Source: Eledone cirrhosa
Taxonomy: Eukaryota
Direction of reading: 5' to 3'
Length of the DNA stretch: 64,000 nucleotides
Assembly (NCBI GenBank): GCA_964016885.1
Contig: OZ024743.1
Coordinates: 69,254,001-69,318,000 of the forward strand
Shown here: positions 15,083 through 15,237 of the stretch, in pieces
Layout of the letters: every line of letters begins with the position of its first letter
How positions within the stretch are numbered: position 1 is the first letter of the stretch
Notes under the pieces: generated by a model
The model's input: the letters and a program-made list of their open reading frames with translations, nothing else
The model's database searches: none
What the model was told of the DNA's origin: nothing
Program-made: the position numbers and the translations under genes

Positions 15083-15237
15083 TTCATTATTTCTGAAGAC
15101 GGCATATATGTGTGTTTGGTATGTATATTTAATCTTGATAGTTTGTATAATTTTGTATAATTTTGTACATAGATCTGTTGAATATGCATGCCAATTCTAA
15201 CACATATATATCCTAGAAACGATCGTTAAATAATGAA
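15083..15237 (+). ncRNA. Type I hammerhead with ~116-nt extended stem II in the PLE pLTR
   Basis: UUCAUUAUUU CUGAAGA [15100-15215 long G.U-rich hairpin] GAAAC-gauc-GUU^AAAUAAUGAA. Stem I is 10 bp and perfect; stem III is the palindrome ACGAUCGU. Confidence 0.78.

Follow-up and report, generated by a model that had tools for sequence, protein, structure and literature searches.

We analyzed a stretch of 64,000 nt from Eledone cirrhosa (assembly GCA_964016885.1, contig OZ024743.1; hereafter, the window) and found that positions 15083–15237 of its + strand probably contain a hammerhead motif of a Hydra-clade Penelope-like element, in which helix II is 116 nt long and which is predicted to cut the RNA of the element after U15227, most likely as a dimer. 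The parts of this reading differ in strength. The motif is very probably a true hammerhead homologue, and its sequence suggests a previously undescribed, long-helix-II form of the known Penelope-like hammerhead; its catalysis is putative, and we regard the prediction that it still cleaves as slightly favored. The original prediction, which was made from the sequence and proposed that a Penelope-like element carries a hammerhead-type motif in its terminal part, is supported in this respect.

The original prediction had placed stem I, CUGAAGA, GAAA, CGAUCG and U-U on the + strand, and all of these were found at the positions assigned to them (Table 1). The inner end of helix I is formed by U15092 paired to A15228, its 3' strand adjoins N17, and positions 15219–15226 constitute a perfect 8-nt palindrome. 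The proposed helix II of ~116 nt between A15099 and G15216 was likewise recovered, as an insert that forms a single long hairpin. Its closing pair beside the core, which had also been drawn, was not recovered: C15100 faces A15215 at the 10.1/11.1 position and C15103 faces C15212, and the first real pair is 15101/15214. Beyond C15103/C15212, helix II continues as a long A-U/G.U-rich stem (~50 bp). In the register of minimum free energy (G15101-C15213 and G15102-C15212, with C15103 bulged), two nucleotides are left before G12; we preferred the symmetric register given in Table 1 because other subfamilies pair A15101 with U15214 and because RNAalifold selects it. RNAalifold also gives a second structure, in which core nucleotides pair with loop 3 instead.

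Table 1. Coordinates of the hammerhead motif, its host element and other hammerhead-like motifs in the window
Feature	Position	Strand	Basis or remark
~30-nt extension (9652–9682) and (TA)n	9652–9733		Mirrors 15633–15702; 100% identity over 70 nt, inverted
Inverted 5'-truncated tail copy	9734–10138	−	Reverse complement of 14895–15299; 98.3% identity over 406 nt
Second intact hammerhead, in the inverted copy	9797–9951	−	C3 at 9941, N17 at 9807; descriptor match
5'-truncated ORF	10141–11889	+	Translations; tblastn with the intact 830-aa ORF; intact tandem copies
3' UTR, TG/TA microsatellite-like	11890–15082	+	Collinear with other copies, 97–98% identity
Helix I, 5' strand	15083–15092	+	10/10 Watson-Crick pairs with 15228–15237
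Core C3–A9 (CUGAAGA)	15093–15099	+	Read from the sequence; directly 3' of helix I
Helix II, imperfect 116-nt hairpin	15100–15215	+	Folds and alignment counts
Helix II base, symmetric register	C15100 opposite A15215; G15101.U15214; G15102-C15213; C15103 opposite C15212		
Core G12 A13 A14 A15.1 (GAAA)	15216–15219	+	Read from the sequence
Helix III and loop 3 (palindrome CGAUCG)	15220–15225	+	Sequence
U16.1 and N17 (U)	15226 and 15227	+	Cleavage predicted after 15227
Helix I, 3' strand	15228–15237	+	Pairs with 15083–15092
Last 186 nt of the element	15238–15423	+	Homology to other copies stops at (TA)n from 15424
Other motif	2162–2192	+	Helix II insert of 14 nt
Other motif	34814–34868	−	Helix II insert of 36 nt
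Other motif	35009–35063	+	Helix II insert of 36 nt
Other motif	59547–59623	−	Helix II insert of 55 nt
Other motif	63448–63478	−	Helix II insert of 14 nt
Other motif	63758–63788	−	Helix II insert of 14 nt

We computed the folding energies of both strands and compared them with those of shuffled sequences. The + strand folded into one long hairpin at –46.5 kcal/mol (z = –5.8), and none of 200 shuffles was as low, whereas the – strand reached –25.8 kcal/mol (z = –2.7), with two shuffles as low. The + strand fold comprises 56 pairs (39 A-U, 11 G-C and 6 G.U) and leaves the core in an internal loop. The difference between the strands arises because G.U pairs become A.C mismatches on the – strand; in other words, the strand asymmetry that had been noted is real and concerns 6 of the 56 pairs. 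When two copies were folded together, the energy was –107.8 kcal/mol compared with twice –46.5 kcal/mol, an advantage of 14.8 kcal/mol over two monomers, and the two copies were joined by an intermolecular helix over positions 15218–15227, which corresponds to an intermolecular helix III.

Our own hammerhead descriptor with a stem I of at least 8 bp yielded three matches in the window: the motif at 15093 (+), its counterpart in the inverted copy (9941, –) and a third motif unrelated to these. The same descriptor had no match in 60 dinucleotide-type shuffles of the window. Rfam returned no hammerhead for the whole window at the gathering score and none among the 46 matches obtained for positions 14000–16500 at E values up to 10, as expected because of the 116-nt insert. 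Published hammerhead descriptors also allow short spacers only (Craig 2021, PMC8557442), in agreement with the claim that length-limited tools would miss the motif. Sub-threshold Rfam matches to mir-297, mir-1277 and similar families were seen at 14000–15900, the best of them reaching 50.5 bits where the gathering score is 90, and we take all of these matches for artefacts of TG/TA microsatellite-like sequence.

Six further minimal hammerhead-like motifs of unrelated families lie in the same window (Table 1), against a null expectation of 0.025 per shuffled window. Helix III is palindromic or stable in these six motifs, and no ORF related to the 830-aa protein described below was found beside them in the window. 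Elsewhere in the window, the blocks 24000–28000 and 46000–52000 show extreme and opposite GC skew (+0.9 and –0.9), and a repeat family with 9–15 nt between copies occurs at 29340–29945 and again from 46374 onward. They resemble satellite-type arrays that may be inverted.

The + strand unit that carries the motif extends over 10141–15423, is 5'-truncated at 10141 and is followed by a (TA)n tract. Reverse transcriptase (RT) motifs from motif A onward are encoded at 10143–10673, and the RT thumb, a Cys-rich linker and, at the C-terminus, a GIY-YIG-like nuclease at 10534–11889; the ORF contains one frameshift, inside the two-frame overlap 10534–10673. The terminal part of the element occurs twice at the locus in inverted orientation. 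The extension and (TA)n tract at 9652–9733 form the outer end of the inverted copy, and both outer ends of the locus carry (TA)n and the mirrored ~30 nt. A second, alternative 3' end is located at ~15299, 124 nt from 15423, with (TA)n after each end; the inverted copy (at 9734) and other subfamilies use the inner end equivalent to 15299, followed by (TA)n. The two alternative 3' ends recall the two internal start sites of reverse transcription in an Anolis element (PMC11167929).

Intact tandem copies of the element are present on another contig, with a period of 6,662 bp and an 830-aa open frame. In these copies, the 3' UTR is ~3.7 kb, and the motif is located ~3.7 kb beyond the stop codon; 196 nt separate it from the 3' end of the element, and the first ATG of the next copy is ~360 nt downstream. 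The repeat was found at 99–100% identity all over the 3.0-Gb genome, with 41 of 730 first-look candidates scored, and the genome holds tens of thousands of first-look matches to this family. Very many genomic copies are head-to-head inverted pairs (e.g. loci L129, L145 and L154), whose junctions lie only 3–43 nt upstream of both C3 positions; 5' truncation thus often occurs at the 5' edge of the hammerhead and not at the cleavage site.

The original prediction had assigned the element to the Naiad type, and this assignment is ruled out by the domain order. In the intact 830-aa ORF (P0003), YxDD at residues 363–366 precedes YIG at residues 724–726, in other words, the RT comes first and the nuclease is C-terminal, whereas Naiads have an N-terminal GIY-YIG nuclease and a CxC domain linking to a C-terminal RT (Craig 2021, PMC8557442). 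Residues 680–830 fall into GIY-YIG clusters in the Atlas (scores of 0.97 and 0.95), and a PDB profile search gave only a weak retron RT match (E = 0.005). Pfam yielded no RT or GIY-YIG match, whether for the ORFs of the window, for the intact ORF or for 22 of its homologues. The protein has homologues at 36–48% identity, among them hypothetical proteins from a cephalopod and from a ctenophore.

The Hydra clade is marked by an RWK motif, by DKT instead of DKG, by a CxCX5C linker and by CxxC and CxH motifs that surround the conserved E and N, and it has no CCHH (Craig 2021, PMC8557442). The intact ORF contains an RWK-type motif (RW[KR] in the clade) at residues 54–56, DKT at 132–134, CxCX5C at 690–698, CxxC at 788–791 and CxH at 816–818, and these motifs also occur in 9–10 of 11 aligned relatives. 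A conserved CCHH is lacking, as two Cys inside the GIY-YIG core vary among the aligned relatives. The element further resembles the Hydra clade in its C-terminal GIY-YIG domain, its insertion at (TA)n and its hammerhead near the 3' end; according to the same paper, (TA)n insertion and canonical hammerheads are found throughout the clade. The inverted 5'-truncated copy is also a likeness, as is the extension, since Penelope-like insertions are described with such a copy, a 30–40 bp extension and (TA)n targets (Craig 2021, PMC8557442). Hence, the host appears to be a Hydra-clade Penelope-like element, an assignment based on motifs and not on a tree.

We searched the genome for the exact core with spacers of various lengths and obtained 4,247 matches with a spacer of 80–108 nt and 5,961 with a spacer of 109–135 nt, for a total of 10,208 exact-core copies of the long-helix form, compared with 65 matches with a spacer of 8–79 nt. 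Backward control patterns had no match in the genome at any spacer range. The long-helix form is the standard form in this genome. The 65 short matches were considered as candidates for a short-helix ancestor with the same flanks, and each of them looks like a one-off internal deletion. In 46 tail copies that had been retrieved independently of the core, neither the core words nor stem I varied in any copy, so the expectation that other copies conserve the core was borne out; one of the 46 carried U15214C.

Variants were called at the contig level in four runs, which revealed 13 variable sites inside the hairpin and none in the core. At N17, which is U or A among copies and not G, A was read in 39% of the contig depth in run X1, and A is allowed at this position. 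All eight purine transitions in stems retain a pair with U, whereas two T-to-A changes break pairs. Purine and pyrimidine transitions numbered 10 and 0 in the hairpin, compared with 3 and 4 in the flanks (14900–15423; Fisher test, P = 0.015). Either selection for pairing or A-to-I editing that became fixed as the element retrotransposed would be compatible with this pattern. In contigs from two other organisms (B and C; runs X5 and X6), the hairpin region was found at 95–100% identity with the same variant sites, which means either that the family is common to close relatives of the host or that samples were mixed.

We further aligned 26 sequences from several subfamilies, of which 20 had been selected by a search pattern that fixes the core. 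Of 987 cells, 98.0% were paired, compared with 20–64% when partners were slid. The variation in the hairpin consists mostly of A-U/G.U swaps, and changes on both sides were observed in only 2 of 38 pairs, a level that 44 of 500 shuffles reached. For example, pair 15101/15214 is A-U in 20, G.U in 5 and G-C in 1 of the 26 sequences, and pair 15088/15232 takes three standard types (U-A, U.G and C-G). The terminal block 15030–15423 is conserved as a whole, and not the hairpin alone, whereas 14900–15020 differs by ~15% between subfamilies. By these counts the fold is maintained across subfamilies, with weak true covariation, as the copies are closely related and the family is too young for a strong signal. 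The earlier proposal of selection at the RNA level is weakly supported. A single 5'-truncated copy (L152:1501-1588) has the same core and the same first four positions of helix II, and the interior of its helix II is unrelated and G-C-rich, yet pairs; because it is a single 5'-truncated copy, we excluded it as evidence of covariation.

Metagenome contigs were scanned with a protein alignment, which gave 78 loci at 36–42% protein identity. Our descriptor detected 47 hammerhead motifs on the coding strand, in 39 of the 78 loci, compared with 4 on the other strand, and the motifs are located shortly upstream or downstream of the ORF. Helix III is always C15.2...G16.2, enclosing a palindrome-like 2–8 nt, and the residue at N17 is A (31 motifs), C (10) or U (5). 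In 46 motifs, the position 10.1/11.1 is occupied by U.U (21), G-C (15), A-U (4), C.A (2), A.C (2) and G.U (2). Neither the C15100/A15215 mismatch nor the CGAUCG palindrome is thus out of the ordinary for the lineage. Their helix II insert measures 10–25 nt in 46 of the 47 motifs (64 nt in one doubtful case), and the length of helix II is the only feature of the motif that is unusual for the lineage.

A plausible route to the long form is that self-complementary TA/TG/CA repeats expanded within the original loop and so enlarged helix II. Such repeats abound in this 3' UTR, and their expansion would lengthen helix II and leave the core untouched. Two copies would pair via the 8-nt palindrome at 15219–15226 and thereby stabilize helix III, as other double hammerheads do, and the predicted cleavage after U15227 may process multimeric or read-through transcripts. 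The core, stem I and palindromic helix III are all in register, no such combination occurred in 60 shuffles, subfamily variants spare the core, and N17 is restricted to U or A; we counted these points in favor of a hammerhead. Against activity we counted the weak base of helix II, with C.A at 10.1/11.1 and C.C at the fourth position. The missing Rfam match, the weak covariation among young and closely related copies, the conservation of the entire terminal block and the alternative RNAalifold pairing of the core also weigh against the reading. The 10.1–11.1 pair is the most conserved after 15.1–16.1 (Perreault 2011), and minimal Penelope-like hammerheads cleave poorly in vitro (Cervera 2014, PMC4209133). 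In the one element tested in PMC11167929, no RNA-seq ends were reported at the hammerhead site. We propose only tentatively, and as something rather doubtful, that a helix II expanded about tenfold to a 50-bp dsRNA is still carried by an active and successful lineage with >10,000 intact motifs.

The same observations could be explained if the motif were a relic, which descends from the ribozyme of the clade and no longer cleaves, with the hairpin and the terminal block serving another step of the element. Candidate roles would be RT recognition or internal priming, or template switching that builds inverted copies. We consider this explanation possible and distinctly less probable than a hammerhead that is still in use. 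The mismatched base of helix II would agree with it, as would the conservation of the whole of 15030–15423 rather than of the motif alone and the many head-to-head pairs joined 3–43 nt upstream of C3; moreover, hammerhead mutants of the element tested in PMC11167929 left insertion in vitro unchanged. However, >10,000 copies and all subfamilies encountered retain an intact core while helix II and stem I vary, N17 varies among allowed residues only, and mismatches at 10.1/11.1 are common in relatives that look otherwise canonical.

The hairpin might instead act mainly as long dsRNA, as a small-RNA precursor or an editing substrate, with the hammerhead core being incidental. The stem of ~50 bp and the excess of purine transitions in the hairpin fit this explanation, the latter as A-to-I editing copied into new insertions or as selection for pairing, but it would leave unexplained why the core is exact, why stem I is in register and why helix III is palindromic as in the short-helix relatives, and we regard it as very improbable. 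A chance resemblance inside a DNA-level palindrome or a low-complexity TG/TA repeat is the least probable of all and close to refuted. The surroundings are indeed rich in self-pairing TG/TA microsatellite-like sequence with many sub-threshold microRNA-like hairpin matches in Rfam; nevertheless, shuffled windows contained no descriptor match, the backward pattern had no match against 10,208 for the forward pattern, the host element and the position are those expected for a Penelope-like hammerhead, and the difference between the strands that results from the G.U pairs speaks for RNA. The hammerhead with an expanded helix II thus remains the explanation that we prefer.

Penelope-like hammerheads are known, their role is unsettled, and some clades are reported to lack them on the basis of searches for short stems. 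The present case indicates that a helix II of >100 nt can conceal the same motif, here in the Penelope-like family that dominates a 3-Gb genome, and it gives a concrete reason for new censuses in which helix length is left open. Should the motif still cleave, published censuses that describe some clades as hammerhead-free would undercount because their descriptors cap the spacer length, and the A/G-only polymorphism of the stem would be a record of selection or A-to-I editing on the folded RNA. The short-helix relatives and the long-helix form offer a natural pair for asking whether cleavage matters to these elements. The gain is incremental and not conceptual.

The discontinuous hammerhead in the 3' UTR of rodent Clec2 is said to have core halves far apart in the primary sequence and to be missed by ordinary searches. 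Its insert is reportedly an unstructured stretch of hundreds of nt in a different stem of a cellular mRNA, whereas the insert described here belongs to a retroelement and extends helix II by base pairing. In the double hammerheads of newt satellite and viroid RNAs, helices I and II are short and make loop-loop contacts, which cannot be proposed here. Both have a helix III that is very short and whose loop is palindromic (Cervera 2014, PMC4209133; PMC7229834). In double hammerheads, helix III is stable only when two copies pair, and the same design is predicted for our motif.

The closest comparison is with the minimal type I hammerheads of metazoan Penelope-like elements (Cervera 2014, PMC4209133), which resemble the present motif in their location in terminal repeats, their open helix I, a helix III formed by C15.2-G16.2 with a palindromic loop, which implies action as a dimer, and an unpaired or mismatched nucleotide directly after A9. 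They differ in that their helix II has 6–8 bp, as opposed to the 116-nt insert (~50 bp) here, in that they have G10.1-C11.1 where C is opposite A here, and in a stem I of 2–5 bp rather than 10 bp. In eight Naiad cases, the core halves are 35–50 nt apart (Craig 2021, PMC8557442). A Penelope-like hammerhead with a helix II of >8 bp was not described in the available parts of the literature examined, on which the supplement of Craig 2021 may bear. The described Hydra-clade elements are <3 kb with a canonical hammerhead (Craig 2021, PMC8557442), and the metagenome relatives fit this short size, with repeat distances of, for example, ~2.4 kb. In contrast, the element studied here has a 6.66-kb unit with a 3' UTR of ~3.7 kb, a non-canonical long helix II and tens of thousands of first-look matches in its genome.
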